From the IMG/VR virus record IMGVR_UViG_3300042090_002370, positions 64,001 to 128,000 of that record: 64,000 bases of DNA; one strand, written 5' to 3'. Every line of letters begins with the position of its first letter. Within the stretch, counting starts at the first letter, position 1. Of this stretch, positions 11,487-33,615 are shown in pieces. The DNA is from a virus. The position numbers were made by a program, and so were the translations under genes. The notes beneath the pieces are model-generated. The model was not told the DNA's origin and did no database searches. It saw nothing but the letters and a program-made list of their open reading frames with translations.

Positions 11487-14400
11487 ATGAGCTTCGTTGG
11501 ACCCGGTGGCGCAGTCGCTTCAGGCCCGGCTTCTGGCCTGCGGTTCGCGCAGTCGCGTGGGCGTATCCAGGGCTCCAATGTTACGGGCGTCAATTATCCG
11601 TCTCCGTTCTTCGATGTCGCCCACACCTACTTGCCCGTCACCGTCAAGGCGATGTTCAAATGGTGCCGCTATTACTTCCTCACGAATCCGCTCATCAATG
11701 CGGTAGTCTTCAAGTTGTCGGAGTACCCGGTCACCGACATCATCATTGACCATCCGTCGAATGAGGTGAAGAGGCGCTGGACCGACTACTTTCAAGACCA
11801 CCTTCGCTGGCAGCCATTTCGTGTAGAGGCCGGTCTCGATTACTTCGCATACGGTAACGGTTGTATCAGTCTAGGCTTCCCGTTCAAGAAGTATCTCTAC
11901 TGTAAGAACTGCGCGTTCCGGGATGAAGCGGGGAAGATTCGAGCGCAGTGGATCTTTACGAGCTTTCAGTTCCGCCTGACGTGCCCAAAGTGTGGCTACG
12001 TCGGCGACGCGCTCGCGAAGGACTTCTATTACAAGAATGCGAGCGGCATCAAGACCATCCGCTGGAATCCTGAAGACATCGAGATTACGTACAACGACAT
12101 CTCTGGGGAGTACACGTACTTCTACACCATCCCTGCAACGGTGCGTAATGACATTGTCATTGGCAGGAAGGACATTGTCGAAGGCGTGCCGCAGGTCTTC
12201 ATCCAAGCGATGCGTGAGCAGAAGGGTGTCATCTTCTCGAAGGACAACTTCTTCCACATGCGTAGGCCTACGTTGGCTACGCAGGACCGCGGTTGGGGCA
12301 CGCCACTTCTTCTGCCTGTTCTGAAGGACACGTTCTACCTCCAGGTCATGAAGAAGGCGCAGGAGGCCATCCTCCTCGAGCACATCGTTCCGTTGAGAGT
12401 TTTGTTTCCACAAGCCGGAAGCGGATCTAGCGACCCCTACTGCGTTTCGCCAGAGACTCTGGTCGAAACACCTTCTGGTTTGCTGCCGGCAGCAGAGGTT
12501 CGCGAGGGCGAGTTCCTTCGCAGCCACACGGGTGCGTGGCGACGCGTCGAGTACCAGAAGCGCCGTCAGATCAAGCCGGCCGAGAAGGTGTTCAAGTTCC
12601 AGATCGCCTCCCTTCCGGCCTTTCCGTTCGCGGTTTCGGAAGATCATCCGATCTTGGCGGTGCCTCGCGTATCCCGCAAGAAGCCGCGCGCTGGTCTGGT
12701 CGACCCGACTTTCATCGAAGCGAAAGCGCTCAAGAAGGGTGACTACGTTGCCTATCCCATCAAGCGCCAGATCCGTCGGGGTCAGATGCTCGATCTGGCA
12801 GACTACGTGACTGAGCGCGCAGCAACCGACAGCTGGGTCTACCGCCGGCTATCGCAGAGTGCTGCGGAAGCATACGAGTGGCTCGAGCAGAACGCAGATC
12901 CCGTGCACGCCTGGGGCGAACGGAAGAAGCTCCTGGAAGAGAAGGGATGGTCGGAGGCAGACTACGCTACTGCAGCAGCTGCGCGCCGCGAGCCTAAGGT
13001 AGATCGCGTGAGCCGCTTTCTGCCGATGTGCCCTGCTCTGGGTTCACTCATTGGCTACTACCTGTCCGAGGGATCGTACGGTGGTTCCACGGTTTCTTTC
13101 TCGCTGCACCTCGAGGAGAAGGACTTCGCAGAGCTCATTGAAAGCGCTGTGAAGAGGCTCGGGTTCCGTGGCGTGTCGCACTACGAGCGCCCAGAGCAAC
13201 ACGGTCGAACTGTTGTCATTGAGGATGTGATCCTATCCGAGCTGTTGGTCTCCATGTGCGGCTCCGGCTTTGCCGAGAAGCGCATCCCAGACGTTGTGTC
13301 GGAGGCTAGTGACGTCATCGTCCTGGATATGCTCCGTGCGCTGTTCAACGGAGATGGCTGTGACTTCAAGACAACCACAGATCGCGTCGGGTTGAAACTT
13401 GCGAACCCCTCGATGATCATGGAGGCGCGTCGACTCCTGCTCTCGTTCGGTCTCATCGGAGGCGTGGTCAAAGAGGAACCTACTGCCACCACGAAGTTCC
13501 GAACGACGAGTTACCAGCTGAACTACAACGGCCACGCCGCATATAAGCTACGGCACTTGTTCGGTAGGCCTGGGGGCTTTGACTGGCAGGAGCTGCCGCA
13601 GAAGAGCGGCCTCGTGCGTGGTGACTACGTGCTCTTGCGGATCGATGCCGTGCACGAAGTTGCCGATGTTCCCGAGGTCATCGGCTTTCAAATGGCGGAG
13701 GACAAGAGCTTCTGTGTCGCCGGTGTCGCGACACACAACACGACGATCAATCTCATCGACTGGCGTGACCAGGTCGCCGCTGAGATCGCCCGCTGGCGTT
13801 ATGACAACAACTACATACCCATCATGCCGTTGCCGCTAGGCAACCAGACCATTGGTGGTGACGGTCGTGCGCTCATGCTCACGCAGGAGATCACGACTTG
13901 GAGCGACCAGATTCTTAATGGCATGGGAGTGCCCGTGGAATTCATACGCGGCGGCCTTTCCTACGCCGGGACTAACGTCTCCATGCGCATGATGGAGAAC
14001 ATGTTCCTTGGGTACATCTCGAGGCAGAAGGCCCTCGCCAAGTTCGTAATGAAGCAGGTCTCTAGCTTCCTTGGTTGGCCGGAGGCGAACATTCGCTTCA
14101 AGCCATTCAAGATGGCCGACGATCTGCAGCGGAAGGCCTACTTGTTCCAGTTGAATCAGGCGAACAAGGTGAGCGACACGACGCTGCTAGCGGACAGTGA
14201 CCTCGACCAGGACGAAGAGAACGAGATTATGATTCGCGAGACGGACAAGCGAATCGAGGCGACGAAGAAACAGCAGCTGGCCATGGCCCGCATTCAGGGT
14301 GAGGCGCAGCAGATCATGATGAAGTTCCAGACTAAGGCACAGCAGGATGCGCAGCAGGCTATGGGCGCCCCCGCTGCGCCAGGCGAGCCTGGGGGTATAG

Positions 14401-14852
14401 AAATGCAGGGGCAGGGTGGAGGTCCAGGTGGCGCCGGCGGCGAAGGCGCGATGCGGACAATGCCTGTGGAGATGCAGGCCGCTGGGGCCGGCGCGAGCGG
14501 TATGGCTGCGCCACCCGCGCAGCCTACGGACCCGTCGCCGCAGGACTTTCTCTCGTCGGTCTCGAGCCAGCTTACGGGTGAGACGAGACTGAACCAGGAG
14601 CAGAGCCAGAAGGGTATTGACCTTCCCACTTATGCGATGGGCCAAGCAAAGCTACTCGTAACGATGGCTAAGCCTCAGCAGGAACAGGCCCTGAGAAACA
14701 TTCAGGCGATGAGCCCGGAGCTCGCCGACCTGGTGAAGCAGATGCTGGCTGAACTGCAGCCGCAGGAGCAGGCTGATAGCGGTAGTGCTGGCGTAGACAC
14801 GCGACCTCTACCGCAACAGCGTCCACCGCGACGAGCGGGCGGGATGGTGTGA
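11487..14852 (+). CDS. portal protein (intein-containing precursor)
   Basis: YYFLTNPLINAVV, DYFAYGNG, FHMRR..GWG.P.L.P, GMGVP..F.G...YA portal-like pattern; ~688 aa after intein removal. Confidence 0.75.
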   Translation: MSFVGPGGAVASGPASGLRFAQSRGRIQGSNVTGVNYPSPFFDVAHTYLPVTVKAMFKWCRYYFLTNPLINAVVFKLSEYPVTDIIIDHPSNEVKRRWTDYFQDHLRWQPFRVEAGLDYFAYGNGCISLGFPFKKYLYCKNCAFRDEAGKIRAQWIFTSFQFRLTCPKCGYVGDALAKDFYYKNASGIKTIRWNPEDIEITYNDISGEYTYFYTIPATVRNDIVIGRKDIVEGVPQVFIQAMREQKGVIFSKDNFFHMRRPTLATQDRGWGTPLLLPVLKDTFYLQVMKKAQEAILLEHIVPLRVLFPQAGSGSSDPYCVSPETLVETPSGLLPAAEVREGEFLRSHTGAWRRVEYQKRRQIKPAEKVFKFQIASLPAFPFAVSEDHPILAVPRVSRKKPRAGLVDPTFIEAKALKKGDYVAYPIKRQIRRGQMLDLADYVTERAATDSWVYRRLSQSAAEAYEWLEQNADPVHAWGERKKLLEEKGWSEADYATAAAARREPKVDRVSRFLPMCPALGSLIGYYLSEGSYGGSTVSFSLHLEEKDFAELIESAVKRLGFRGVSHYERPEQHGRTVVIEDVILSELLVSMCGSGFAEKRIPDVVSEASDVIVLDMLRALFNGDGCDFKTTTDRVGLKLANPSMIMEARRLLLSFGLIGGVVKEEPTATTKFRTTSYQLNYNGHAAYKLRHLFGRPGGFDWQELPQKSGLVRGDYVLLRIDAVHEVADVPEVIGFQMAEDKSFCVAGVATHNTTINLIDWRDQVAAEIARWRYDNNYIPIMPLPLGNQTIGGDGRALMLTQEITTWSDQILNGMGVPVEFIRGGLSYAGTNVSMRMMENMFLGYISRQKALAKFVMKQVSSFLGWPEANIRFKPFKMADDLQRKAYLFQLNQANKVSDTTLLADSDLDQDEENEIMIRETDKRIEATKKQQLAMARIQGEAQQIMMKFQTKAQQDAQQAMGAPAAPGEPGGIEMQGQGGGPGGAGGEGAMRTMPVEMQAAGAGASGMAAPPAQPTDPSPQDFLSSVSSQLTGETRLNQEQSQKGIDLPTYAMGQAKLLVTMAKPQQEQALRNIQAMSPELADLVKQMLAELQPQEQADSGSAGVDTRPLPQQRPPRRAGGMV
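12441..13739 (+). mobile_element. intein with LAGLIDADG homing endonuclease in the portal gene (433 aa)
   Basis: Starts CVSPETLV, block B SEDHPIL, LIGYYLSEG and LFNGDG endonuclease motifs, ends ATHN followed by Thr. Confidence 0.92.
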
Positions 14853-14934: not shown

Positions 14935-15155
14935 CATTTGCATGATTCCTCGACGATGGCTTCGGCGAGGTCGACGCGCCACTGTTCATCGAGGCGCTTT
15001 CGGTCCTCGTAGGTCTGGTAGGGAACTGAGAGGAGGAACCGGTAGCAGCGGCTGACGCTCTCCGGCGACCGGTCCTCCACTTGGTTAGGTCCTGACCATA
15101 TCCAGCGACCGCGATCGTTCCACCAGTACCCGGTATGCGGGAACCATGTGCGCAT
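14934..15155 (-). CDS. small Trp-rich hypothetical protein
   Basis: 1-nt overlap with the upstream gene; ends at the terminator. Confidence 0.6.
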   Translation of the reverse strand: MRTWFPHTGYWWNDRGRWIWSGPNQVEDRSPESVSRCYRFLLSVPYQTYEDRKRLDEQWRVDLAEAIVEESCK

Positions 15156-16669: not shown

Positions 16670-17862
16670 GGGTTTCGCGTTGTGTGTACGAAGAGAGATA
16701 TCTTGTCCGCGAACTTCTTGATGATCTTACGGGACACTGCGTCCATCGCCGATGAGTGCTTCGTGGTGAAGCCTGCGCGCATTAGAGGTACTGCGGCAGC
16801 GCATGCGGCATCGAGCATACCGTGCTTCTCCCAGGCATCGGTGAGCAATACCCATGCTTTCAACGCCCACTTTGTGCGCTCATCCTTGTCTGGCTTCGCA
16901 AGTGTCCAGGCGATGGCTTGGCCGTAGGCGGCGAAGCAGATATCAAGGCGGCGCTTGTCGGGCTCCCATCCGTTTGTCAGCATGTCTTCTGGACTCGGCA
17001 TGTTGGCTTTGAGGGTCCATTCTCCCCATGCAGCTGCTGGCCCTTTTCCAACGCACGCGGTGATGAACTCGAGACGCCACTCCTTACGGCCGATGCATTC
17101 GCAGGTGGCAGCGACGTTGGTGGCGAGGTCCCAGGTTCTGGGTGACGGCCACGCGCGGCCGCGGTCGACGTGACCGTCGCGCGGTATTTTCAGGAGCGTA
17201 TCCGGACCTAGGCTTTTGATGAACCCAGCGAATAGCCCTTGGTAGTAGGGGAAGACGTCGGGCCACTTCTTGCGGACCATCTCCTCGCCCTCATCGGCGC
17301 CGATGACCTGAGCAGCGTGGTTGCCCATTCGCCATGAGGCCCACTTGTCCGGCGACGGCGTAGGCATGTCGAAATGCATAAGGCGATTGGCCATAGGTAA
17401 GGATAGTGGCCAACCGCCTGCAGCTTCCTCTGGCGGGTTGGCGGCGGCCATGATGCGGATGCCTCCTGGTAGACGCTTGTTAGCCAGGATGCGGTCGCGC
17501 ACGAGACTCAGGCCTGCGCCCTGTACTGCCGGGCGTGCGCAGGTGAGCTCGTCTACGAAAATGACACCGCGCTTGGCCCTGATGAGATCTTGGATGCCGG
17601 GGTGCGCGATGTGTGTTGTCACACCGCCCTTGCCATCAGACATCGGAATGCCGCCGAGTTCTTCTGGTTGTGCTGTCGACAAGAAGAGCTCGCTTACGCT
17701 AAGCCCCACTGCGTGACCGGCCTCGCGGACGCTGTCGGACTTGCCAATGCCCGGCGACCCCCAGAGGATAGCAGGCGCACCCCAACGGCAATCATCGTCG
17801 TATGGGTTGTCCATCGGTGTGAGAAGTGCAACGGAGATGAGGTGTTCGACGGGGATGTCCAT
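16666..17862 (-). CDS. MoxR-like AAA+ ATPase
   Basis: GSPGIGKS, FVDEL, AANP and ANRL motifs; coupled to the VWA gene. Confidence 0.88.
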   Translation of the reverse strand: MDIPVEHLISVALLTPMDNPYDDDCRWGAPAILWGSPGIGKSDSVREAGHAVGLSVSELFLSTAQPEELGGIPMSDGKGGVTTHIAHPGIQDLIRAKRGVIFVDELTCARPAVQGAGLSLVRDRILANKRLPGGIRIMAAANPPEEAAGGWPLSLPMANRLMHFDMPTPSPDKWASWRMGNHAAQVIGADEGEEMVRKKWPDVFPYYQGLFAGFIKSLGPDTLLKIPRDGHVDRGRAWPSPRTWDLATNVAATCECIGRKEWRLEFITACVGKGPAAAWGEWTLKANMPSPEDMLTNGWEPDKRRLDICFAAYGQAIAWTLAKPDKDERTKWALKAWVLLTDAWEKHGMLDAACAAAVPLMRAGFTTKHSSAMDAVSRKIIKKFADKISLFVHTTRNP

Positions 17863-17870: not shown

Positions 17871-18494
17871 CTATCGATATTCGATGGTGGTTGGTTCAGC
17901 GGGCTGTTCTTCATCTTCCTCTGGCGCTTCGAAGTGGCAGCGGCATTCGCATTCTGACGCTCTCCAGCAGCGAGCTTGGATGCAATCGACGCATTCGCCG
18001 TACTCTGTAAGGTCGGGCCACATATCGATGCACCCATCGTTCAGGAGCGACATGCAGTAGAGGCAGATCAGATCGGGGTTACTGATGCCTAAGAAAGAGG
18101 CATCGTGCATGCCGTTCGGTGCGCGTTCGGAGATGTGGAACTCGCCGAGCGTTGCGAGCCCAGCGAGTTCAAACTCTCGTATGCCACTGCCGCAGCAGAC
18201 GCACTCGAACTTGCTATCGTAGTCGTTGACCGGTAGTTCGTCCTCCATGTCGCTGTGTATTTCGCCGTAGTTCTTCTCCCAGCACTGGATGCAGAAATAG
18301 TAGGGCTCGAATCGGAAGCAGCCGTCCGGGTCGTGCTCGTCGATGACCTCGTAGTGCAGTACGCCTTCCTGACCGCGTTTCGAGCGAACAATCTGGAGAA
18401 GAAAAACCTCGTCCATGTAAACCACGGCTCCGCCACAATCGGCGCAGATGTGGTCCGTTTTGCGCAGCTCGATTGGGTCTAGCTCTTTTCCCAA
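17871..18494 (-). CDS. acidic multi-CxxC (zinc-binding) hypothetical protein
   Basis: CADC, CIQC, CVCC, CLYC, CVDC and CECRCH motifs. Confidence 0.75.
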   Translation of the reverse strand: MGKELDPIELRKTDHICADCGGAVVYMDEVFLLQIVRSKRGQEGVLHYEVIDEHDPDGCFRFEPYYFCIQCWEKNYGEIHSDMEDELPVNDYDSKFECVCCGSGIREFELAGLATLGEFHISERAPNGMHDASFLGISNPDLICLYCMSLLNDGCIDMWPDLTEYGECVDCIQARCWRASECECRCHFEAPEEDEEQPAEPTTIEYR

Positions 18495-19063
18495 CGTACT
18501 CTCTTCCTCTCTGCTCGCATCCAGCGGTGCTCAATGGTCTCGAAGCGCGTGTCGGGCGACTGCCCTGTTTCTGGTGCGTAGTCCCCGAGCATTACAAAGA
18601 GATCTTCTACGTCATAGTTCTTCCCTATGTGTACACGCCTGGCTATGTCGTACTCCGTGGTGAGGATGCTCATCGGCATCTGTGTTCGCAGCAGGCCTTC
18701 TCGTTCGAGTAGGTCGTCGCGTAGGTCTTCGTCGTCGCAGGCCAGACCGACCCAGCTCTCACTGGTGCAATCAACGTAGTACTCGTCCAGCCATGGGCAG
18801 AACTCGCCGGGTTGGGCGTAGCCCAGTATTACTTCCAGATCGCGTTGATTGCAGAAGGAGATGAATCCCTTCTGGTCGCGAATCTTTACGCGCAGGCCGC
18901 CTAGAACGCGGCCTGGGATGGGCATGTATGCGGTCTCGACTTGCCAGATACGTCGAGCATCGAGGGGGTCCGTAAACCGAACCCCCTCGATGCCTAGCTG
19001 TGTTTCTATGACGCGGGTTCCTGGGAATGTACTGGGTCTGTCACGGTACAGGTTGATGATCAA
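18479..19063 (-). CDS. hypothetical protein
   Basis: TTG start with GGAG SD; in operon. Confidence 0.7.
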   Translation of the reverse strand: MIINLYRDRPSTFPGTRVIETQLGIEGVRFTDPLDARRIWQVETAYMPIPGRVLGGLRVKIRDQKGFISFCNQRDLEVILGYAQPGEFCPWLDEYYVDCTSESWVGLACDDEDLRDDLLEREGLLRTQMPMSILTTEYDIARRVHIGKNYDVEDLFVMLGDYAPETGQSPDTRFETIEHRWMRAERKRVRWEKS

Positions 19064-19154
19064 GGTGCTCCGTCAGCTTGCGATGAATCCACAGCATGAT
19101 GCCGTTGAGAAAACCGGCGAGTATGAACCACAAGAGACTCTTTCTCACGCTTCT

Positions 19155-19164
19155 CTTATTCCCG
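19155..19164 (-). promoter_or_regulatory. putative class I promoter motif CGGGAATAAG
   Basis: Intergenic, upstream of the MoxR operon. Confidence 0.55.
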
Positions 19165-19186
19165 TAGTGTTCAACCTATTTCCGCG

Positions 19187-19342
19187 TTACTCGCCCTCGT
19201 CTTCGCTTTCCTCGTCGTCTTCATCGAAGTCTTCATCGAAGTCTTCGGACCCGTCGTCTGTAGGTAGCAGCTCGCGTTCGATCTTTCGCTCCATGCCGCC
19301 ACCCACCGTCTCTTCTTTTACCTTCTTGTCCTTCGGTCCCAT
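19187..19342 (-). CDS. small protein with a highly acidic C-terminus (51 aa)
   Basis: ATG 19342 with SD GAAAGG; MGPKDKK...EDFDEDFDEDDEESEDEGE. Confidence 0.65.
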   Translation of the reverse strand: MGPKDKKVKEETVGGGMERKIERELLPTDDGSEDFDEDFDEDDEESEDEGE

Positions 19343-19378
19343 ATTGATGCCTTTCGTGGCGTTGCATCTCCCATCTCT

Positions 19379-19388
19379 CTTATCCCGC
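19379..19388 (-). promoter_or_regulatory. putative class I promoter motif GCGGGATAAG
   Basis: Ends about 37 nt upstream of ATG 19342; divergent from the RNAP gene. Confidence 0.65.
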
Positions 19389-19435
19389 GGCGGTGCGTTT
19401 TTTGGTGTCGTTGGCCTTATGCCGGACGGCATGAG

Positions 19436-22400
19436 ATGATTGCAGCGGCCATGGCGTATTTGGACCCCAAGAAGGCGTTCGAACACCTGAAGGAACGCGT
19501 GCTCGAGGGCATACAGGACCAATTTGCCAAGAACCCCATTGTCGGGAAGAAGCAGTCGCTGCACCTTGAGGCGCTCGAAGTACGCGACAAGTTAGGTGAG
19601 GCAGACGACATCCGCGCACAGCACAAGGCAAAGGTGGAGAACGACACCTGGGCGGTGCCTATTTATGCCACACTGGCGCTCAAGGATAACGAGACCGGAA
19701 AGGCGTTAGACCGTCGAACTATCCGCATCGCGGAGATTCCGAAGACGACTAACAGGCACTCGTACATCATCGATGGGCAGGAGTATCAGGTCAACAACCA
19801 GTGGCAATTGCGGCACGGCATTTATGTAAAGCGCCGTGTGAACGGTGAGCTTGAGGCTGCGTGCAACGCGGGTCGCGGGTTCGATGTTGTGCTGGACCCG
19901 GCAACCAAAGTCTTTCGAATGGAGCACGGTAAGAGCCGCGGTAAGCTCCCCATCTACCCATTCCTCAAGACGCTTGGTGTGAGCGACGAAGATCTCATGA
20001 AGTCGTGGGGCAAGGAGATGTTCGAAGCGAATCAGAAGGCGCCGAAGTCGGACATTGCGCTCGAGAAATTCTACAAGGCGGATAAGCCGTGGGCAGGTAC
20101 TCCAACCAAGGAGGTCGCTGCCGAGCACTTCTACGACATGATGGAGAAGACGCATCTCCGTCCAGAGTCCACGCAACTCACGTTAGGGCGGCCCTTCACG
20201 CATGTATCCGGCGAGGCGCTGAAGCTCGCAACTGAGAAGATGCTCAAGGTACAGGCGGGGCACCCAGAGGATGACCGCGATTCACTGGTCTTCAAGGATC
20301 TACGTACCGCCGGTGACTTCGCCTATGACGCCATTCTACATCAGCGCAAGAATATTGAGACACGTGCCGGGCGACAGATCGACAAAGCAAAGGACGCCTA
20401 TGACGTCATGAAGTTCGACATGTTCAACAAGCCCATCAAGGGGGCGTTGTCCTCAGCGAACGCGGCGGCTATGCCGGCATCGCAGATCAATCCACTAGAG
20501 ATGGCGTCGTCTGCGATGCAGACTACTATCATGGGCGCAGGCGGTATTCGTACCGCGCAGCAGGTACAGCATGAAGCGAAGTTTGTGAATCCCAGCCATC
20601 TCGGTTTTCTTGATCCGCTCAACACACCGGAGGGTGAGAAAACAGGTGTCACATTGCGGCTGCCTATCGGTGTACGCAAGGTCGGGCACGAGGCGAAGAT
20701 TCCTCTCTACAACCTGCTCTCCAAAAAAACCGAGCTTGTCTCTCCAGGCGAGTTCATGGAGGCAAACATCGTCCTGCCAGATCAGGTGAAGTGGGAAGAT
20801 GGCGTACCGCATCCGCTGCACCATACAGTTCGCGCGAGCTCTAAGGGCAACGAGATTCGCGACGTGAAATTCGAGGATGCGCACTACGTTATGCGCAGCC
20901 CTTCTCAGCTTTTCAACATGACTTCGAACCTCATTCCATTCCTGGCGAACACGAGCGGTAACCGCGCGTCTATGGCGAGCAGGCATATGGAACAGGCGGT
21001 CTCGCTCTTGCATCGTGAGGCCCCACTTGTCCAGGTAGGTACAGGCTCCGACAAGGAAGGCATCGACACCTTCGAGAACATCATGGGCTACCAGGCGTCC
21101 CACGCTGCTTCGGAAGAAGGCAAAGTTGTAGCAGTGAACAGGGACGGCATTATCATTGAAGACCGCCTTGGTAAGAAGCACGAAGTTCAGCTCTACAACA
21201 ACTACCCGCTCAATGACGCCAAGAGTGTGATGCACTCTACACCCGTTGTCGCCGTCGGCGATCATGTGAAGAAGGGTCAGCTCATTGCAGACACGAACTT
21301 CTCCAAGAATGGGACGCTCGCTCTCGGCACGAACTTGCGCGTCGCGTACCTGCCCTTCAAAGGGTACAACTTCGAGGACGGTGTTGTCATTAGTGACAGC
21401 GCTGCCAAGAAGCTCTCGAGTGAGCATCTGCAGAAGCTGATGATGCCACTCGACCAGGAGACCATACTCGACAAGAAGCGCTTCCACATCTCCAACCCCG
21501 GGTTGATGACGAAGGAACAGTACGAGAAGATGGACTCGAACGGCATAGTGCGGGTGGGGCAGAAGGTCCAGCCAGGCGACCCGCTCGTTGCAGCGATGCG
21601 ACCGTACAAATTGAAGGACCGTACGGGTATGGCGGCTGTGCGCAAGGCCATGGGCGGTCGGCACGATGACCGCAGCATGCGGTGGGACAGCGACTTCGAG
21701 GGCGAGGTCGTAGGCGTACATCGCAGCGACAAAGGGCTGACCGTTCATGTTCGCACGGTCGAGCCTATGCAGGTCGGCGACAAGATCAGTAATCGTTATG
21801 GTGGGAAAGGTATCGTCACCAAGATTCTGCCCGACCCTGAGATGCCGCACACGAAGGACGGTAAGCATATAGAGGTAGCGCTAAACCCCAGCGGCATACC
21901 GGGGCGCATGAACGTGGGGCAGGTCTTCGAGACCTCCGTCGCCAAGATCGCCGAGAAGACCGGCAAGCCCTACATCGTGAAGAACTTCGACACGAACATG
22001 GACGTCATCGCCAAGGTCCAGGCTGACCTGAAGGCGCACGGGCTCTCGGACACCGAGGAGCTCAAGGATCCTGCGACTGGGCAGATCCTTGGGCAGGTGA
22101 CGGTGGGGCCGCAGCACATCTTCAAACTCGTTCACCAGATCGACAAGAAGCTTGCAGTGCGCAGCGGCAGTGGGACCCTGCCTGGGGCAGCGGCGGAGCA
22201 TTACGACTTGAATCTGCAGCCCATGGGTGGCAAGAGCACTGGCGGGCAGTCGATGGGCACGCTGGGGCTCTTCGCGCTCCTGGCGCACGGCGCCAAAGCA
22301 AACATCCGGGAGATGCAGACATACAAGTCGGAGGGCCCGGACCCGCAGACCGACCCGGCGAAGAGGTGGCCGAGCGACCACCACCGGATCTGGGCAGCCA

Positions 22401-25400
22401 TTCAGACTGGGCACCCACTACCGACGCCCAAGCCGACTTTTGCTTACCGCAAGTTCGAAGACATGCTACGCGGGAGTGGCATCAACATCGAGAAGAAGGG
22501 GCATGACCTTATCCTCTCGCCAATGACGGACCAACACATACGAGCGCTGGCGAAGAACGCACTGCCGCACCCTGCGGACATGCTGAACTCGAAGATGGAC
22601 AAGAACGGAGACCCTAAGCCTAAGGCCGGTGGGCTCTGGGATGAGAAGCTTACTGGTGGGTTGGGCGGTCGTCAGTGGACGCGAATCGAGCTATCTGAAC
22701 CGCTGCCAAACCCCATCTTCGAGAAGCCTATCAAGGCACTGACCGGGCTCTCTCCAAAAGACTTTAATGCTGTTCTGCATGGAAGTAAGGGCGTCACGGC
22801 GAATGGCAACATCACGGAGGCCGGCGCCGGCGTAACTGGCGGAGCGGGCATCAAGGTTTTGCTAGACCGCGTCAACGTTGCGCGCGATCTCGCCAAGGCC
22901 GAGGCTCAGCTGAAGATCGTCAAGGGGCAGAGCGTCGACCGTGTACTGAAGAAGGTAAAGTACTTGCGGGCGCTCAAGCAGATTGGGGTGACCCCAAGCG
23001 AGGCGTACATCCTTCACAACATCCCTGTCATGCCGCCCATCATGCGACCGGTATCGAAACTGCCGGATGGGTCACCTAAGTTCGACGATATCAACCAGCT
23101 CTATTCCGACTTCGCGAAGATCAACGATAAGTTGAAGGACCCCATCTTGGTGAGGAATCTCACTGACGAGGGGAAGTCGGATCTCCGCAAGGACTTCTAC
23201 GACGGCGCCAAGATGTTCATGGGCATGGGGCTCCAGTACGGAGATGCCAAGCACAAGGGGCTACTGCACCAGATTGCCGGCAGCTCACCGAAACACGGCT
23301 ACTTCCAGGACAAGCTCATCGCCCGCAAGCAGGATCTGACGATGCGCTCGACCATCGTCCCCGAGCCAGGTCTCGATTTGGATGAGGTGGGTCTGCCGAA
23401 GCACGCCGCGCTCGAGCTTTTCAAGCCCTTTGTCGTTCGCCAGCTCAAGCAGATGGGCGCCATACAGAACGAGGTGCAGGGCGCGGCCTTTGTAGAGAAG
23501 AAGAGCCCACAGGTCTGGCGTGCGCTCGATCGTGTGATGGCGGAGCGACCTATTCTCCTAAAGCGAGACCCTGCGCTGCACAAGTACAATGTGCAAGCCT
23601 TCCGTGCACGGCCTATTGAGGGCGACGCTGTGCGCATACACCCGCTCGTGACGGGCGGATACAACGCCGATTTCGACGGCGACACGATGAGTGCCTTCGT
23701 GCCCATCACGCACGATGCGGTGAACGAGGCCGTACGGATGTTCCCCTCTCATAACCTCTTCAGCGAGGCGACTGGCCGGCTTATGTACCAGCCGACGCTC
23801 GAGAGCGCCCTCGGACTCTACAAGCTGTCGGTAGTTGGTAAGGACTCCGGGCAGAAGTTTGAGCACGCTGGCCTGGCACTTGACGCCGTGCGTTCGGGGA
23901 AGCTTGGGTATACCGATGTCGTACACATCGGTGGCAAGAAAACCACGCCGGGGCGCATTCTGCTCTCCAGCGCGGTTCCGGAGGCTATGCAGAGCGAGAT
24001 GCTGCATGATCTTCACTATCGAATCGACGGTAAGTCAGCGGGCCTGAGCGCGCTTCTGACAGGCATTGCTAAGCATTACGGCCCGCAGTATGGAGAGGTC
24101 GTCAACAAGCTGAAGGATCTCGGCAACACTACGACATTCGGAGCAGCAGCGGTTCCGCGGGCTACTAGCGCTGGGCACGCGATGTCTTTTAGCACGTTGG
24201 GTAAGAACCCAGTCGCAACACTCAATAAGAAGATGGATGTCTTCATCCCAGTTGGGGCGCACACACTCTCGCTTAAGGACTTCGAGCCGGACAAGGCGTC
24301 GAGGGACCACGTGCTGTCAGCAGCTCACAAGGTCGTAGAGAAATACGCCGACGACCCGAAAATGACTAAGGACGAGAGGGATCGCAGAACCATTGCCGTA
24401 TACGAACACGCCGCCGACGAGATGAAGGCCCTACATGAAAAGAAGGAAGAGAAAGACCCAAGCAACCTCTACACAATGTACAAGGCTGGCGTGAAGCCTG
24501 GCTGGGACCAGTACAAACAGATGGTTCTAGCACCCATGATTTACAAGGATTCCGCTGATCGGAAGATTCCGATACCTGTGACCAAGAGCTACGCAGAGGG
24601 GCTAGACGTAGGCAGCTACTGGACTCAGATGCACGGCGCCCGACGCGGTTCGGTCATGAAGGTGCAAGAGGTCAGCGGTCCAGGCTATCTATCCAAGTTG
24701 CTCATGAACAACATGATGCACATTCTTGTGAACTCTCCTGATTGCGGGACGAGCAAGGGCATCGTCCTGGACGCCAATGAGGCAGATATTCATGATCGAT
24801 ACCTGCAGCAGGAGTTCACACACGGCAAGGTTACTTTTCCTGCGGGTACGCTACTCACCCCAAGCGTTGTCGGGAAGATCCGAGCGGCGAAGAAGGACGC
24901 CAAGCTGCTTGTACGAAGCCCGCTGAAATGCGAGGACCCGAAAGGGATTTGCCAGATGTGCTCAGGGCTTGGCTCGAGTGGTCAGCACTACGACCTGGGG
25001 CACAATCTCGGCGTGCAGTCTGCACAAGCCGTTGGTGAACGCGGCATCCAGTTAGCGCTCAAGAGCTTTCATACAGGTGGCGTAGGCGAACACAAGGGCG
25101 GCTCGAAGCTGCTCAACTCCTTCGAGCGCTTCAAGCAGCTTATGTACTTGCCTGAGAAAGTTCAGGACGAGTCCTCCCTAGCGATGAAGACTGGGAAGGT
25201 TGAACAGATCGTGCCTACGTCAACAGGAGTTGACATCTTCATCGGCGGGCAGAAGCACCATGTGGGCCGCGATACGAAGGGCATGCCGCTGCATCAGCCG
25301 CTGCCAGGCGCAGAGGCGGTAGAGGGCTATGTCCACTGGAAGGTTCCGGTGGTCGGGCAGCACCTCAAGGCAGGGGACACGCTCTCCGACCCCAACCGTA

Positions 25401-25915
25401 CGCTGCTCAACCCCCATCATCTCTATGCGGCGACAGGCTCCATTGAGGAGGTACAGAATCACCTCACGAATGAGATCTACGGGCTCTACCAGAAGGAAGG
25501 CATCAAGCGTCGAGCCATTGAAACGGTCGTGCGCGCGATGAGTAACCTAACCAAGGTCAATGACCCTGGCGAGCATCCCGATGTCCTCCGCGGTGAGTTC
25601 TACCCGCTGGCACAGGTGCAGCATATGAACCAAGAGCTGCTGCGCAACAAGAAGCGGCCTATCGAACACGAGCCGGTGATGAAAGGCATCAGCGCTATGC
25701 CTCATGCCCTCATTGAGGATTGGATGGCGAAGTTGCAGCATGAACATCTGCGAACGACGCTCACTGAGGCCGCGGCGATGGGCGGCATTTCCCACCTCCA
25801 TTCTACTCACCCGATTCCAGCCATTGCTTTCGGCGCCGAATTCGGGCTTACTTCCAAGGACGCGCTAAAGCCAGGGCATGAACACTTACGTGATGTGCCG
25901 GCGCATTACTACTAG
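19436..25915 (+). CDS. rpoBC: DNA-directed RNA polymerase, fused beta-beta' subunits (alternative start 19451)
   Basis: beta motifs TPEG, LIPFL...NRA.M, GYNFEDG, GDKISNRYGGKG, LNPSGIPGRMN.GQ, GGQ.MG; beta' motifs PVMPP..RP, LLKRDPALH, NADFDGD (23663-23683), GYLSK.L, RSPLKC...CQMC, AQAVGERGIQL.LKSFHTGG; one uninterrupted frame. Confidence 0.95.
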   Translation: MIAAAMAYLDPKKAFEHLKERVLEGIQDQFAKNPIVGKKQSLHLEALEVRDKLGEADDIRAQHKAKVENDTWAVPIYATLALKDNETGKALDRRTIRIAEIPKTTNRHSYIIDGQEYQVNNQWQLRHGIYVKRRVNGELEAACNAGRGFDVVLDPATKVFRMEHGKSRGKLPIYPFLKTLGVSDEDLMKSWGKEMFEANQKAPKSDIALEKFYKADKPWAGTPTKEVAAEHFYDMMEKTHLRPESTQLTLGRPFTHVSGEALKLATEKMLKVQAGHPEDDRDSLVFKDLRTAGDFAYDAILHQRKNIETRAGRQIDKAKDAYDVMKFDMFNKPIKGALSSANAAAMPASQINPLEMASSAMQTTIMGAGGIRTAQQVQHEAKFVNPSHLGFLDPLNTPEGEKTGVTLRLPIGVRKVGHEAKIPLYNLLSKKTELVSPGEFMEANIVLPDQVKWEDGVPHPLHHTVRASSKGNEIRDVKFEDAHYVMRSPSQLFNMTSNLIPFLANTSGNRASMASRHMEQAVSLLHREAPLVQVGTGSDKEGIDTFENIMGYQASHAASEEGKVVAVNRDGIIIEDRLGKKHEVQLYNNYPLNDAKSVMHSTPVVAVGDHVKKGQLIADTNFSKNGTLALGTNLRVAYLPFKGYNFEDGVVISDSAAKKLSSEHLQKLMMPLDQETILDKKRFHISNPGLMTKEQYEKMDSNGIVRVGQKVQPGDPLVAAMRPYKLKDRTGMAAVRKAMGGRHDDRSMRWDSDFEGEVVGVHRSDKGLTVHVRTVEPMQVGDKISNRYGGKGIVTKILPDPEMPHTKDGKHIEVALNPSGIPGRMNVGQVFETSVAKIAEKTGKPYIVKNFDTNMDVIAKVQADLKAHGLSDTEELKDPATGQILGQVTVGPQHIFKLVHQIDKKLAVRSGSGTLPGAAAEHYDLNLQPMGGKSTGGQSMGTLGLFALLAHGAKANIREMQTYKSEGPDPQTDPAKRWPSDHHRIWAAIQTGHPLPTPKPTFAYRKFEDMLRGSGINIEKKGHDLILSPMTDQHIRALAKNALPHPADMLNSKMDKNGDPKPKAGGLWDEKLTGGLGGRQWTRIELSEPLPNPIFEKPIKALTGLSPKDFNAVLHGSKGVTANGNITEAGAGVTGGAGIKVLLDRVNVARDLAKAEAQLKIVKGQSVDRVLKKVKYLRALKQIGVTPSEAYILHNIPVMPPIMRPVSKLPDGSPKFDDINQLYSDFAKINDKLKDPILVRNLTDEGKSDLRKDFYDGAKMFMGMGLQYGDAKHKGLLHQIAGSSPKHGYFQDKLIARKQDLTMRSTIVPEPGLDLDEVGLPKHAALELFKPFVVRQLKQMGAIQNEVQGAAFVEKKSPQVWRALDRVMAERPILLKRDPALHKYNVQAFRARPIEGDAVRIHPLVTGGYNADFDGDTMSAFVPITHDAVNEAVRMFPSHNLFSEATGRLMYQPTLESALGLYKLSVVGKDSGQKFEHAGLALDAVRSGKLGYTDVVHIGGKKTTPGRILLSSAVPEAMQSEMLHDLHYRIDGKSAGLSALLTGIAKHYGPQYGEVVNKLKDLGNTTTFGAAAVPRATSAGHAMSFSTLGKNPVATLNKKMDVFIPVGAHTLSLKDFEPDKASRDHVLSAAHKVVEKYADDPKMTKDERDRRTIAVYEHAADEMKALHEKKEEKDPSNLYTMYKAGVKPGWDQYKQMVLAPMIYKDSADRKIPIPVTKSYAEGLDVGSYWTQMHGARRGSVMKVQEVSGPGYLSKLLMNNMMHILVNSPDCGTSKGIVLDANEADIHDRYLQQEFTHGKVTFPAGTLLTPSVVGKIRAAKKDAKLLVRSPLKCEDPKGICQMCSGLGSSGQHYDLGHNLGVQSAQAVGERGIQLALKSFHTGGVGEHKGGSKLLNSFERFKQLMYLPEKVQDESSLAMKTGKVEQIVPTSTGVDIFIGGQKHHVGRDTKGMPLHQPLPGAEAVEGYVHWKVPVVGQHLKAGDTLSDPNRTLLNPHHLYAATGSIEEVQNHLTNEIYGLYQKEGIKRRAIETVVRAMSNLTKVNDPGEHPDVLRGEFYPLAQVQHMNQELLRNKKRPIEHEPVMKGISAMPHALIEDWMAKLQHEHLRTTLTEAAAMGGISHLHSTHPIPAIAFGAEFGLTSKDALKPGHEHLRDVPAHYY

Positions 25916-25920: not shown

Positions 25921-27195
25921 ATGCTGAATTGGGCATCGAAATTTCGCACGTCGATGACGAGCGTGGCTGGTCATGGGCCGGCTAAGATTTGCCAAGGGCG
26001 CATCGTCAACATCAATCTGCTCAAGTGGACGGTCGATGTTATCGCGCAATTCGACAGGAAGCGTTACTTCAACATCCAGGTGAGCTCGCCATATCTGCAC
26101 CATGCCAGCGGCGAGGGCATCTACGTCATGCCTGAGGTCAATGCGACCGTCATGGTCTGCATCCCCTCGGACAGCACGGCGCCCTTCGTTCTAGGTTTCA
26201 TTATGCCGACTGAGACCGTCGACTCCTCTACGGACGACGCGCCTCTCGGTACGACGCAGCACGCTCAGGCACCGGCGAACGCGACTGACTCCTCCTATGC
26301 CGCCGGACGCACAGCGAATCCTGGTGACATCGTTATGCGCTCGAGGGACAACAACTTTGTCATTCTGCATCGAGGGGGCGTGCTCCAGGTGGGTGCGACT
26401 CCGCTCGCGCAGCGCCTCTATATCCCTCTGCAGAATCTCGTGATGGACATCAGCGAGAACTATGAGCACCAGAATTCTGGTGGTGCCATCAAGTGGGGTA
26501 TACAGGAAGGCCCTTCGCAGACGACGCACCCCACGCAGTTCGTCCAAACCTTCCGTGTCTTTGCCGAGAATCAGTACGCGGACGTGCGCGTGACGTGCGG
26601 CGACATCACCGGACCATACGGGGACCCAGACGGCGGTGTTGCCGCTGCTGCGGATGGCTTGGGGCAGAAGAACAACACGGCTACAGCTAGCAACTGCGTT
26701 CTCTTCGAGATCGCCGTTACACCGCAAGGCTTCAACGTCAGCACTGGCGTGCCCAACGATGTTCCGGTTTCAGCGTCTACCTTCCGCTTCGCCTACGACA
26801 GAACTGGCAACGTTTTTTTACGTAATGCCGGCAACTTCTCCCAGCAAACGCAGGGTAAATACACGCTTTCGGTAGTCGGTGACCTCAGCGTTTCTTCGCA
26901 GGGTGTCGTGGAGCTCACATCACCCAAGAGCGTCAAGATCAACGGCGGAAAAGAGACGGACATTATAGGGACTGTCGTACGGCTGAATGCTGGGAAGAAC
27001 GCCGTGGCCTCTAAGGGCGACATGGTGCGTATCGATGTCGCAACCACTACGCCATTACAGGTCGGGCCGACTCCTATCCCGGTTGTCGGCTCTCCAACCG
27101 GCCCGTGGAGCATCGCTCCTGGAACACCCATCATCTTGACTGGCACGCTCTGGGGTTCGATTGTTGTCTGCCAAAACAGTTCGGTGCTGACGTGA
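25921..27195 (+). CDS. baseplate spike/hub-like protein (gpV/gp5-type OB fold + beta-strand repeats)
   Basis: GEGIYVMPEVNATVMV...PFVLG OB-fold pattern; C-terminal short beta repeats. Confidence 0.65.
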   Translation: MLNWASKFRTSMTSVAGHGPAKICQGRIVNINLLKWTVDVIAQFDRKRYFNIQVSSPYLHHASGEGIYVMPEVNATVMVCIPSDSTAPFVLGFIMPTETVDSSTDDAPLGTTQHAQAPANATDSSYAAGRTANPGDIVMRSRDNNFVILHRGGVLQVGATPLAQRLYIPLQNLVMDISENYEHQNSGGAIKWGIQEGPSQTTHPTQFVQTFRVFAENQYADVRVTCGDITGPYGDPDGGVAAAADGLGQKNNTATASNCVLFEIAVTPQGFNVSTGVPNDVPVSASTFRFAYDRTGNVFLRNAGNFSQQTQGKYTLSVVGDLSVSSQGVVELTSPKSVKINGGKETDIIGTVVRLNAGKNAVASKGDMVRIDVATTTPLQVGPTPIPVVGSPTGPWSIAPGTPIILTGTLWGSIVVCQNSSVLT

Positions 27196-31526: not shown

Positions 31527-31774
31527 CCCTTCTTGAGCGCCAGTCTTGTGATCTTCCAGCCGCTCTCCTTGGCGTACTCCCTCATCAGGGACGTCAGCGA
31601 GCTCCACACGGACGGCATGAGATTGCCAGGCGCGAGTTGTAGTGAGCACTCGTAGGACGCGTCTTTGGGTATGCACCGAGCATTGGATGTGAACACTGGA
31701 CCGGCGGCCTGTACACAACTCCACATGTTGTTGAGCAGCTCCTGCGCGTCTGCGGTCTCTGTCGGTGGAAACAC
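31466..31774 (-). CDS. hypothetical protein
   Basis: Fills the gap between plus-strand genes; plausible alpha/beta composition. Confidence 0.45.
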   Translation of the reverse strand: MFPPTETADAQELLNNMWSCVQAAGPVFTSNARCIPKDASYECSLQLAPGNLMPSVWSSLTSLMREYAKESGWKITRLALKKGHVALAISPSSASSNKSKNR

Positions 31775-31782
31775 GTGAGCCT

Positions 31783-33615
31783 ATGACTATCTATCATCAC
31801 TACGGACCCAACGGCTACCAGGAGCTGGATAGCGAAGACGAACCGGAGCTCAGCGACGACGCGCTCCGAGCGGCCTACGATTGGATGAACGCGCCGGAGT
31901 CCTTCGCGGACTTCAGTCTAGTTGACGAGGCCTATGTAGAGGACGGCGACATCCCACCTATCCTGCCTTCGGAATTTACCGAGTTCGCCTTCCGGATGCC
32001 GTTGGTTGATGGAAGTGGCTGGGGCCCGTTTGATTTCGGGCCCAGACGCCACATGCGGCAGCTTTACGACACACCGGCCAAGCGCGTGTTGCTCTTCTGT
32101 GCACGGCAGGTAGAAAAGTCGACGATGCTGGGTAACCGCTCGCTGACGTACTCTTGCATGATTCCTGGCTTCCGTACGCTATACGTGTCGCCCTCTGCTA
32201 CGCAGACCAAAACTTTCTCCGTCGACCGAATCAAGGAGCCACTCGAGACCAGCGATATCCTAAAGGCGTACACGACGTCGCTTCTGCAGCAGAACGTCTT
32301 CGAGAAGCAGTTCGTCAACCGCTCGAAGATCACGCTGCGTTACGCCTTCCTCAACGCCGACCGCTGCCGCGGTATCCCTGCGCACGGTATCTTCATCGAC
32401 GAGTTCCAGGACATCCTGTCTGACTGCGTTCCAGTCATCGAGCAGGCCTCCAGCCATGCGCCCGAGAACCTAAAGCGTTTCATCTACGCCGGCACGCCCA
32501 AGGGCCTCGATAACGTACTCGAGTACTACCGTTCAGGTACTTCTAAAGGCCAGCCCATGAGCACCATGGGCGAGTGGGTAGTGCCCTGCGACCGACATGG
32601 TGGCGAGGGCGGACGTTTCTGGAACATCCTCGGCGAGAAGAACATTCAGAAGAAGGGGCTCTCTTGTGAGAGATGCCACCAACTCATCGACCCGATGCAC
32701 ACAGATGCACAATGGGCGCAGCTACAAGAAGAAGGTGTATTCGAGTCCTATCGTATTCCGCAGCTCATGGTCCCGTGGAAAGAGTGGAGCGAGATCTACC
32801 TCGACTACGGGCGATACGAGCGAGCCAAGTTCTACAACGAAGTCCTTGGTATATCTTACGATTCAGGACTCCGTCCGTTGACGCGGCAGCAGGTGCGTGA
32901 GTGCTGCCGACCCAACATCTCAATGCACCCGAGCGAGCTCGATAAGTACCGCCAGCACGGCATGCCAGGAAACACAATCTTCGCTGGTATTGATTGGGGC
33001 ACGGGCGAAAATTCCTTCACAGTCCTCTGTCTTGGTACGTACATAGAAAGCCGCTTTCGCATCTTCTATATCCACCGCTTCATCGGGGAAGACGTCGACC
33101 CCGTTCCGCAGCTGCAGAAGATCTGCGAGATGCTCTCGTACTTCAATGTGCGCATCATTGCCACGGACTATGGTGGTGGCTTTCACAGCAACGATCACCT
33201 GACGCGGAAATTCGGATACAAGCGCGTGATGAAGTATCAATATATGGCCCGCGCTCGAAAGAAGGTCTTGTGGAACCCGGCCTTCCGCCGCTGGCAGATC
33301 GTTCGCACCGAGCTCATGTCGGACGTCTTCAATGCCATCAAGAGGAAGCAGATAGACCTGCCGCGCTTCGAGGAGTTCGAGGACCCGTACGCCAATGACT
33401 GCCTGAACATTTACGCCGAGTACAACGACACACTGCGCATGCTCCAGTACCGGCACCGCCCCGACAAGCCCGACGACTCCTTACACGCTATCCTCTACTG
33501 CCTGGTTGGTTCGATGATTGTATACCCCAGGCCAGATTTGATAATGCCGCAGAGGGAGTTCCCTGGACAGGGACCGCTACGCAGTGCCTATAGGGGGCCT
33601 TTAGATCAAGGTTGA
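31783..33615 (+). CDS. terL: terminase large subunit
   Basis: LLFCARQVEKST (Walker A variant), FIDEFQD, AGTP coupling motif, nuclease FAGIDWG ... DDSLHA; start could be 31765. Confidence 0.88.
   Translation: MTIYHHYGPNGYQELDSEDEPELSDDALRAAYDWMNAPESFADFSLVDEAYVEDGDIPPILPSEFTEFAFRMPLVDGSGWGPFDFGPRRHMRQLYDTPAKRVLLFCARQVEKSTMLGNRSLTYSCMIPGFRTLYVSPSATQTKTFSVDRIKEPLETSDILKAYTTSLLQQNVFEKQFVNRSKITLRYAFLNADRCRGIPAHGIFIDEFQDILSDCVPVIEQASSHAPENLKRFIYAGTPKGLDNVLEYYRSGTSKGQPMSTMGEWVVPCDRHGGEGGRFWNILGEKNIQKKGLSCERCHQLIDPMHTDAQWAQLQEEGVFESYRIPQLMVPWKEWSEIYLDYGRYERAKFYNEVLGISYDSGLRPLTRQQVRECCRPNISMHPSELDKYRQHGMPGNTIFAGIDWGTGENSFTVLCLGTYIESRFRIFYIHRFIGEDVDPVPQLQKICEMLSYFNVRIIATDYGGGFHSNDHLTRKFGYKRVMKYQYMARARKKVLWNPAFRRWQIVRTELMSDVFNAIKRKQIDLPRFEEFEDPYANDCLNIYAEYNDTLRMLQYRHRPDKPDDSLHAILYCLVGSMIVYPRPDLIMPQREFPGQGPLRSAYRGPLDQG

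Follow-up and report, generated by a model that had tools for sequence, protein, structure and literature searches.

Among characterised phage RNA polymerases (RNAPs), the closest relatives of the enzyme described here are those of Salmonella phage Arash (Gp206 and Gp216, with the sigma factor Gp10; OQ632216; PMC10585845) and of the Vibrio phages D69, D148 and D181 (0261 and 0264). The hosts of these phages are Gammaproteobacteria. Their beta subunit is fused to the N-terminal half of beta', so beta' is cut in two, giving chains of ~1525 and ~606 amino acids (aa) encoded 0.6-4.8 kb apart. The Arash paper names the genes beta and beta' and does not remark on the fusion (PMC10585845). Here we describe a 64,000-nucleotide stretch of viral DNA (the window; bases 64001-128000 of IMG/VR record IMGVR_UViG_3300042090_002370) in which one gene, at 19436..25915 on the + strand, encodes a complete bacterial-type RNAP catalytic core in one polypeptide, with most lineage-specific inserts shed.

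The enzyme of the window belongs to the same deep phage lineage as those of Arash and D69, with 30-33% identity over 69-89% of the protein, the same beta/beta' junction and the same deletion of a zinc ribbon, and in each case the RNAP gene adjoins a portal gene. Further common traits are a SNF2-type helicase, a related ATAAG promoter-like motif and, for the window's own phage probably, a gp10-type sigma (see below). Only about ten proteins of the window's genome have relatives in the Arash and D69 stretches that we compared, which leave out 50-100 kb of Arash. The IMG/VR record is linear, 163,859 bp long and estimated to be 88% complete, its source being an uncultured phage with a genome of roughly 190 kb, and the RNAP gene is present in a single copy in the whole 163.9-kb record. 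The account that we favour, and consider fairly probable, is that of a single-chain core that uses neither alpha nor omega, works with a phage sigma at promoters of its own, and is made late and packed into the virion.

A catalytic core in one chain

The reading frame at 19436-25915 (+) runs for 2159 aa, free of internal stops, and is supported by the list of open reading frames (ORFs), its translation, Pfam matches and full-length relatives that are 54-79% identical. Since the relatives begin at MAYLDP, translation probably starts from the ATG at 19451 and yields a protein of 2154 aa. Matches to the beta families Rpb2_3 and Rpb2_6 fall within aa 349-911, and those to Rpb1_1, Rpb1_2 and Rpb1_5 of beta' within aa 1154-2047; three of the five score far over their cut-offs (198.8 bits for Rpb2_6 with a cut-off of 23.4, 88.1 bits for Rpb1_2 and 66.4 bits for Rpb1_5). 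The PHROGs matches are two long families without known function, one of them beta-like and the other beta'-like. The preliminary description of this DNA, made from the letters alone, had proposed a single 2159-aa frame with the catalytic motifs of both subunits, and the ORF, the Pfam families and the conserved motifs described below bear this out.

The beta-like module (~aa 1-1021; 19436..22498, +) comprises the protrusion and lobe, the fork, the double-psi beta-barrel (DPBB) with the flap, and the C-terminal part that contributes to the clamp, as judged from phmmer, AlphaFold2 (AF2) and Foldseek. Its phmmer match to bacterial beta chains covers aa 41-967 with 258 bits, and bacterial beta chains score 200-258 bits while archaeal and eukaryotic homologues score ~80. 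The beta'-like module (~aa 1022-2159; 22499..25912, +) is defined by AF2, Foldseek and the Pfam families Rpb1_1, Rpb1_2 and Rpb1_5. By alignment with bacterial beta' N-termini, the two modules meet at GINIEKKGHDLILSP (aa 1015-1029; 22478..22522, +), where the beta C-terminal ...GINIE motif is followed by a linker of ~5 residues and then by the ILSPMT... start of beta'. The junction had been placed near 22480-22510 and indeed falls there, the peptide quoted for it being aa 1007-1031 (nt 22454-22528).

All the major catalytic elements are present. In the beta barrel, the GDK...GGKG motif and the flap insert are found within the Rpb2_6 match. The active-site lysine motif GDKISNRYGGKGIVT (aa 781-795; 21776..21820, +) aligns to GDKMAGRHGNKGI of bacterial beta, and its D782, K783, K791 and G792 are invariant among 56 relatives. 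The catalytic NADFDGD of beta' (aa 1410-1416; 23663..23683, +) was recognised in the sequence and in the alignment of relatives; among 63 of these, A392, D393, D395, G396 and D397 (alignment numbering) are invariant and N391 and F394 nearly so. The bridge-helix region GARRGSVMKVQEVSGPGYLSKLLMNNM (24635..24715, +) lies inside the Rpb1_5 match and is conserved among relatives, and in the trigger-loop base VGERGIQLALKSFHTGGV (25031..25084, +) residues E849, Q853, F859, H860, G862 and G863 are conserved in alignment A3.

Two elements with which sigma factors engage in bacteria are also retained. The first helix of the clamp coiled-coil, DINQLYSDFAKINDKLKD (aa 1218-1235; 23087..23140, +), aligns to DLNDLYRRVINRNNRLKR of bacterial beta', and the beta' model has the coiled-coil as helices 200-215 and 225-243. 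The clamp coiled-coil is the usual docking site of sigma region 2. The equivalent of the flap-tip helix, GMAAVRKAMGG (aa 731-741; 21626..21658, +), aligns to the bacterial flap, forms a helix at 732-738 in the model, and is what we take, from established knowledge of bacterial RNAP, to be the docking helix for sigma region 4.

In contrast to bacterial beta', the fused protein has no N-terminal zinc ribbon. The site of its loss, GGLWDEKLTGGLGG^RQWTRIEL (22628..22693, +), appears as an alignment gap in a region free of cysteines, and lies in the GGLWDEKLTGGLGGRQWTRIEL stretch at aa 1065-1086. The missing block of 32 residues bears the CxC...CxxC ribbon (YECxCGKY...C..CGVEV) in the beta' of the likely host and of other bacteria, and every row of the phage lineage, those of Arash and D69 among them, shares the deletion. 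A second zinc site is retained, with C1770 (NSPDCGTS), C1832, C1839 and C1842 (LKCEDPKGICQMCSG; 24731..24967, +) in alignment A3, where C751, C813 and C820 are invariant among 63 relatives and C823 is conserved in at least 90% of them. The whole protein has five cysteines, namely C143 and the four of the second site. Thus the earlier proposal that the beta' N-terminal zinc domain was lost and the second zinc site kept agrees with both the 32-column gap and the four cysteines.

The fold is bacterial in both halves. AF2 models built on family alignments reached a mean predicted local distance difference test score (pLDDT) of 80 and a predicted template modelling score (pTM) of 0.72 for the beta' module, with Foldseek template modelling (TM) scores of 0.72-0.76 to bacterial beta', and a pLDDT of 75 with TM scores of ~0.70-0.73 to bacterial beta for the beta module. 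The best PDB matches of both modules are bacterial beta' and beta chains (E ~1e-60). The structure prediction that had been suggested as a check, with the bacterial core as reference, therefore has both modules folding as bacterial chains, at TM 0.70-0.76 overall.

The chain was originally described as much shorter than a bacterial beta plus beta'. This stands in relation to E. coli (1342+1407), from which it differs by 590 aa, but the smallest pair of bacterial chains in the PDB tables (1193+1199) is undercut by only ~10%, so "streamlined" is a fair but modest term. We also noted that the equivalent of the rifampicin cluster at 20480-20545 (+), aa 349-370, reads SQINPLEMASSAMQTTIMGAGG and is diverged from bacterial beta; the positions of E. 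coli D516, H526 and S531 read S, S and T. Given this divergence of the rifampicin-binding cluster, the enzyme is probably insensitive to rifampicin.

Family, origin and host

Far from being rare, the fused RNAP characterises a phage family of very large size. A word-indexed search found at least 120 clusters at 90% identity that are 54-79% identical to the window's protein over the full length, on contigs of up to ~200 kb. There is also a second fused lineage at 38-42% identity. An exhaustive search with the junction-spanning part of the protein (aa 560-1700) returned 2954 proteins at E<=1e-30. When these are clustered at 50% identity, nearly all of the best 150 representatives have 2000-4739 aa, and most of those 150 that have no long inserts match over the junction in one stretch. 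Many of the family's RNAP homologues bear inteins (LAGLIDADG), with lengths up to 4739 aa.

These enzymes branch deep, outside all sampled Bacteria, as judged from sequence phylogeny. In two maximum likelihood trees of the beta' module, all phage rows (the window's family, the 38-42% lineage, Arash and D69) lie beyond one branch of ~1.3 changes per site with 100% support in the Shimodaira-Hasegawa-like approximate likelihood ratio test (SH-aLRT), and Arash and D69 are sister to the window's family. As caveats, the trees have no archaeal or eukaryotic outgroup, use a site-homogeneous model and carry long-branch and composition warnings. Stand-alone bacterial beta' chains share 25-30% identity with the phage module; they belong to unrelated phyla, and no donor is prominent among them.

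Copies of the fused gene in bacterial genomes point to the host. The 13.6-Mb chromosome of Pendulispora rubella (CP089983) holds a full-length copy with neighbours as in the window, in an integrated element at ~9.115-9.232 Mb (loci L008, L015, L019 and L038). This element has an open RNAP frame of 2153 aa and the five genes that follow it in the window, and the chromosome also has a terminase homologue, 62% identical to that of the window, ~85 kb from the RNAP copy and a phage-type sigma ~25 kb from it. Hence at least one member of the family is integrated in a host chromosome. Host-like genes, including a sigma-54 activator, separate the Pendulispora RNAP block from the terminase, so the element may be rearranged or carry host-like cargo. 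A second bacterial copy is in a Myxococcales metagenome-assembled genome (MAG) whose RpoC is 93% identical to that of Pendulispora. Based on these two copies, we believe that the host of the phage is probably a member of the Myxococcota. This link, through an integrated copy in a sequenced and cultured Pendulispora strain, is new from the window.

The same genomes bear on where the gene came from. Its Pfam families are cellular ones and one copy sits in a bacterial chromosome, as would be expected if a host rpoB-rpoC pair had been captured recently or if the contig were contaminated with bacterial DNA. We regard this as extremely improbable. The RpoC of the likely host sits among bacteria in the trees and is 27.8% identical to the phage beta' module, while phage-type copies in the same genomes are 58-61% identical to it (58% for the prophage copy of Pendulispora). 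In addition, the phage enzymes form a clade of their own, phage genes flank the RNAP in all loci, and the zinc-ribbon deletion is lineage-wide. Nesting within a bacterial clade as a recent capture had been named at the outset as an outcome that would count against the proposal, and both the SH-aLRT support for a separate clade and the low identity to the host RpoC speak against it.

Sigma, a promoter-like motif and proposed packaging

Six-frame hidden Markov model (HMM) searches of the whole 163.9-kb record gave no match at E<=1 for alpha (PF01000, PF01193), for omega (PF01192) or for sigma (Sigma70_r2/r3/r4, TIGR02937), while control genomes gave matches (14/14 for alpha and omega). Neither alpha nor omega was found in G003, a 100%-complete relative of 193.8 kb, or in Arash and D69, whose genomes are complete as well. 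For these two subunits, the earlier statement that no gene is recognisable in the window thus extends to the record and to complete relatives. It is probable that the covalent beta-beta' link replaces the role of the alpha dimer in bringing beta and beta' together; since such a link would make an assembly scaffold unnecessary, the core would be expected to work without phage alpha or omega.

It could be that the phage recruits alpha and omega from its host, in which case the single chain would assemble with one or both of them and the product would be a phage-modified host enzyme. A lack of phage alpha and omega genes says nothing on the use of host proteins, and the fold is bacterial throughout. 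On the other hand, the relatives infect very different hosts, the enzymes of phiKZ and AR9 are, as far as we are aware, active without alpha or omega (reviewed in PMC7598289), and the contact surfaces for these subunits are unlikely to be preserved at only 28% identity to the host RpoC. We hold an assembly with host subunits to be quite unlikely.

The case of sigma is different. A phmmer search with the Arash sigmas found no match in the record. A sigma profile built from Arash-gp10-like proteins gave one strong match each in G003, in another relative (G006), in Arash, in D69, in Pendulispora and in the Myxococcales MAG. In these 6/6 related elements the E-values are 1e-59 to 1e-106, with host sigmas scoring far lower. 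The sigma of G006 has a Sigma70_r3 match of 50 bits and aligns to regions 2.3-3.1 of SigA/RpoD. The same profile found no match in the 88%-complete record of the window. However, G003 from 147.4 to 134.6 kb corresponds gene by gene to the record from 145.2 to 163.3 kb, and the sigma gene of G003 is at 131.4-132.1 kb, which is 2-3 kb past the equivalent of the record's right end. The contig ends at 163,859 in a simple repeat: bases 163380-163859 of the record are a G+C-rich repeat encoding (GR)n, directly after a small gene led by GGGGGATAAG. This repeat probably broke the assembly 2-3 kb short of the expected sigma gene. Given the synteny beyond the contig end and the matches in 6/6 relatives, the missing sigma is most simply explained by a truncated assembly.

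The preliminary description had seen no sigma gene and had inferred an enzyme that may work without alpha and sigma. None is in the window or in the record, but this is most simply an artefact of the contig end; the HMM search that it called for finds neither alpha nor sigma in the 88%-complete record, with sigma to be expected beyond that end. Work without alpha is consistent with the HMM negatives, whereas work without sigma is not what 6/6 relatives with a gp10-type factor suggest. A chain able to initiate entirely by itself, with no sigma-like factor, alpha or omega, would fit the lack of sigma HMM matches in the window and in the 163.9-kb record and the lack of phmmer matches to the Arash sigmas. 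Those negatives come from a linear record that is 88% complete, with the syntenic position of the sigma gene just past the contig end, and both the clamp coiled-coil and the flap tip, on which sigma docks in bacteria, are retained. With a gp10-type sigma in 6/6 related elements, we consider initiation without sigma very unlikely.

Instead, the core very probably pairs with a phage sigma. The clamp coiled-coil and flap tip would dock a small gp10-type sigma-70 factor made of regions 2-3 and a weak region 4, whose gene in the window's phage would lie just off the contig end. A predicted complex of the clamp region (aa 1120-1439) with the G006 sigma scored lower than a control, and this model speaks neither for nor against the pairing.

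Several other sigma candidates were set aside. Sub-threshold Sigma70_r4 matches in G003 and G004 come from HNH endonucleases whose C-terminus is a helix-turn-helix. Behind the spike gene of the window (see below), the 234-aa ORF encodes an Ala/Leu/Ser/Gly-rich protein of ~210 aa with no PDB or Pfam match. When the gene order of Arash was used as a guide, the ORFs that follow the gp8 homologue of the window's phage turned out to encode disordered proteins tagged with FxDELxKIA. Several proteins with an FxDELxKIA-type helix are encoded after the gp6/gp8-like genes at 153952-160134 of the record, one of them a SNF2-type helicase whose Arash homologue, Gp217, is part of the particle proteome of that phage. 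No such tag is seen on the RNAP.

A promoter-like motif, GG[AGT]ATAAG, is overrepresented in the phage, with 8 copies in the window (2.3 expected) and 25 in the record (5.2±2.2 expected). For 18 copies, the 60 nt downstream contain a Shine-Dalgarno sequence and the start codon of an ORF with 40 codons or more, where 0.41 such copies would be expected; these 18 precede non-structural genes and lie a few nucleotides ahead of the Shine-Dalgarno sequence. Among intergenic 7-mers GGGATAA is the most enriched, followed by words of a TTTTAGCTAC terminator tail. TTTTAGC, TTTAGCT and TAGCTAC are enriched 12-15x in intergenic DNA, and words of this type fit the tail of a terminator made of a hairpin, a U-tract and AGCT(AC). 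These motif statistics, and the explanation of the apparent lack of sigma by the contig end, are also new from the window.

The minus strand carries two copies of the motif shortly upstream of the RNAP gene. The copy GGGATAAG (19379..19386, -) is divergent from the RNAP gene and leads a small acidic ORF (~19342-19187); the motif is at the same place in loci L009 and L012, and as the variant GAGATAAG in L007/L014. The copy GGAATAAG (19155..19162, -) stands ahead of a unit of m194, m207, a MoxR ATPase and a von Willebrand factor A (VWA) protein. No copy of GG[AGT]ATAAG faces the RNAP gene or the structural block. Related motifs precede non-structural genes in Arash (TGGTATAAG / TGGTATAAGnAAnGTGTA), where they include the TG of an extended minus-10 element, and in D69 (GTTATAAG). 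The arrangement G G n A T A A G with a start site a few bases on would have the shape of an extended minus-10, and because of this shape the motif would fit a sigma that retains regions 2.4 and 3.0.

Given these observations, we suggest that the core with its gp10-type sigma most likely reads the GG[AGT]ATAAG promoters of the non-structural genes, and that the RNAP is probably made late, packed with sigma and brought into the next cell along with the DNA so that a new infection can begin, by analogy with N4, phiKZ and crAss-like phages. Late synthesis and packing are probable because the gene heads the block of particle genes, lacks the motif and is the only RNAP gene. For Arash, the particle proteome has Gp206 with the highest spectral count, Gp216 with the fifth highest and the sigma Gp10 covered to 100% (PMC10585845). 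For packaging taken by itself, our judgement leans towards it, though somewhat less firmly than for the account as a whole.

A different use of the enzyme has to be weighed here, in which it is not a virion protein: it would be made during infection and read middle and late genes, and the host holoenzyme would read the early GG[AGT]ATAAG elements. The motif resembles TATAAT, that of Arash has the extended minus-10 TG, and no capsid-targeting signal is evident, the N-terminus of the protein being the conserved beta N-terminal helix. Yet the last base of the motif is an invariant G, a place at which sigma-70 is well known to prefer T, and related motifs occur in phages of different host phyla that share only the phage enzyme and its sigma. 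There is only one RNAP gene, and since this motif-less gene heads the structural block, an RNAP that reads the block must exist before the block is expressed. Gp206, Gp216 and Gp10 are also among the strongest signals of the Arash particle proteome. A polymerase confined to the infected cell is therefore the less probable reading, and we would call it unlikely.

Some points weigh against a packaged enzyme with its own sigma and promoters. The sigma gene is not in the record, and its presence is extrapolated from synteny and from 6/6 relatives. The motif resembles a sigma-70 minus-10 and the host holoenzyme could be its reader. For the structural block, including the RNAP gene, neither intergenic k-mer enrichment nor comparison of RNAP-upstream regions brought out a second promoter motif. 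The Arash RNAP is only ~30% identical to that of the window, and the Arash "virion" proteome comprises 116/272 proteins, including ribonucleotide reductases (PMC10585845). Its authors allow for contamination by abundant infection proteins (PMC10585845), which we consider probable; since such proteins may contaminate a particle preparation, packaging is plausible but not certain even for Arash.

At its widest, the argument is that of a private transcription system, with an alpha- and omega-free single-chain core, a small virion-carried sigma, an extended-minus-10-like GGnATAAG promoter and a terminator of its own (hairpin, U-tract and AGCT), kept from phages of Enterobacteria and Vibrio to phages and prophages of Myxococcota, on a branch outside all sampled Bacteria. 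We offer this tentatively, as a possibility that falls somewhat short of even. If it were true, this would be the smallest natural sigma-dependent RNAP of cellular type, and it could be tested in cultured relatives. If the proposed mechanism is right, a two-protein machine of core and small sigma would serve as a minimal model for the roles of alpha, omega and the first beta' zinc ribbon; it would also invite structural work and might be of use for orthogonal expression. A large family outside the sampled Bacteria is relevant, too, to how cellular RNA polymerases evolved early on and to the independence of large phages from the host enzyme.

Gene neighbourhood and comparison with known systems

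The RNAP gene is the head of a long co-directional block of particle and packaging genes. Its stop TAG (25913-25915) is followed by GAGCC and then by the ATG at 25921 of a 424-aa candidate for a gpV/gp5/VgrG-like baseplate spike or hub (25921..27195, +). This candidate has a weak Pfam match to Phage_base_V (E=0.006, under the cut-off), Atlas features at 0.95-0.96 and structure rows in its favour; the gap of 5 nt that had been reported between it and the RNAP gene is confirmed. The large terminase (31765..33615, +) is 6 kb downstream of the RNAP gene; it matches PF05876 only (GpA_ATPase, 30.2 bits) and is 27% identical to the Arash gp1 TerL. Upstream, the homologue of Arash gp204, annotated as a portal protein, is a gene of 1121 aa (11487..14852, +) identified by tblastn to Arash and D69 and by Pfam, with an intein (LAGLIDADG_3 at aa 613-683).

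Between the portal-like and RNAP genes, at 15155-17862 (-), are a MoxR-type AAA ATPase (398 aa) and a 504-aa protein whose Pendulispora orthologue has DUF2201/VWA domains. The order is thus the MoxR/VWA unit, the RNAP, the spike-like gene, four further conserved genes and the terminase. The RNAP and five downstream genes are kept in 8/8 related loci, and the terminase comes next in 7/8, the exception being the Pendulispora locus L008. The MoxR ATPase and the 504-aa gene are upstream on the opposite strand in 7/8 (L013 starts inside the RNAP gene), and the portal-like gene is upstream in 5. At 18479..19063 (-) there is a real gene of 194 aa, function not assigned, with full-length orthologues 41-56% identical in six related loci (L007 and L014 do not differ from each other here). 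The 196-aa ORF on the + strand at 18849-19439, which overlaps the RNAP start and was considered as an accessory subunit, is the antisense shadow of this conserved minus-strand gene, in a low-complexity frame. The small, very acidic ORF at ~19187-19342 (-), of ~51 aa and ending ...DEDFDEDDEESEDEGE, is back to back with the RNAP gene and may encode a DNA mimic or a protein for early takeover of the host.

Sigma-70-type promoters and intrinsic terminators were not above chance across 18-34 kb of the window. Profile searches of PDB sequences gave no match for the 424-, 674- and ~210-aa neighbours, and "Portal_Mu" was not adopted for the 674-aa protein, as the Atlas score was only 0.85 with few shared features.

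Fused rpoB-rpoC genes are known from Helicobacter and Wolbachia, where a single reading frame runs on from the end of beta into the start of beta'. Those are housekeeping enzymes of ~2900 aa that keep both zinc sites and use alpha, omega and host sigmas. For a fully fused phage enzyme, we found no description in the literature on mReC, jumbo phages and myxophages; the myxophage groups MV-3 and MV-4, for which "RNA polymerase subunits" are given, have genomes of 33-38 kb and are not of the fused-RNAP family. A fully fused phage RNAP of the multisubunit type with its own sigma is apparently unpublished.

The mReC group (Weinheimer and Aylward 2020, PMC7481178) resembles the window's phage in that it consists of metagenomic tailed phages with cellular-type beta and beta' that fall outside Bacteria. 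It differs in having, in all phage rows of that paper's table that were compared, separate beta and beta' genes of ~900-1400 aa each (PMC7481178), and the paper mentions fusion only for crAss-like phages (PMC7481178). The contigs of mReC have a T4-type capsid (PF07068) and a PF03237 terminase (PMC7481178), neither of which was found in the incomplete record of the window, where PF07068 gave no match. Membership in mReC is thus ruled out by gene structure and by marker genes.

Like the window's phage, phiKZ and AR9 encode their own RNAP without alpha or omega, and one of their sets is packaged, injected and reads early genes (PMC7598289, PMC7824862). Their enzymes, however, are made of 4-5 polypeptides in two sets, are far more diverged and use no sigma-70-type factor, whereas the window has one chain in one set with clear Pfam matches, and its relatives have a sigma-70-family factor. 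The gp62-type enzyme of crAss-like phages and YonO also have both barrels on one polypeptide, and the crAss-like enzyme is reported to be packaged in the virion. These two are beyond detection by cellular beta and beta' HMMs and have barrels like those of RNA-dependent RNA polymerases, without a flap insert, in contrast to the cellular beta and beta' matches of up to 199 bits and the TM of 0.7 over the whole length that we obtained here. It is bacterial RpoB and RpoC that the protein of the window resembles in domain order, catalytic motifs, bridge helix, trigger loop, second zinc site, clamp helices, flap and fold, and it differs from them in being fused, in its identity of only 20-30%, and in having neither the first zinc ribbon and lineage inserts nor alpha and omega genes beside it.

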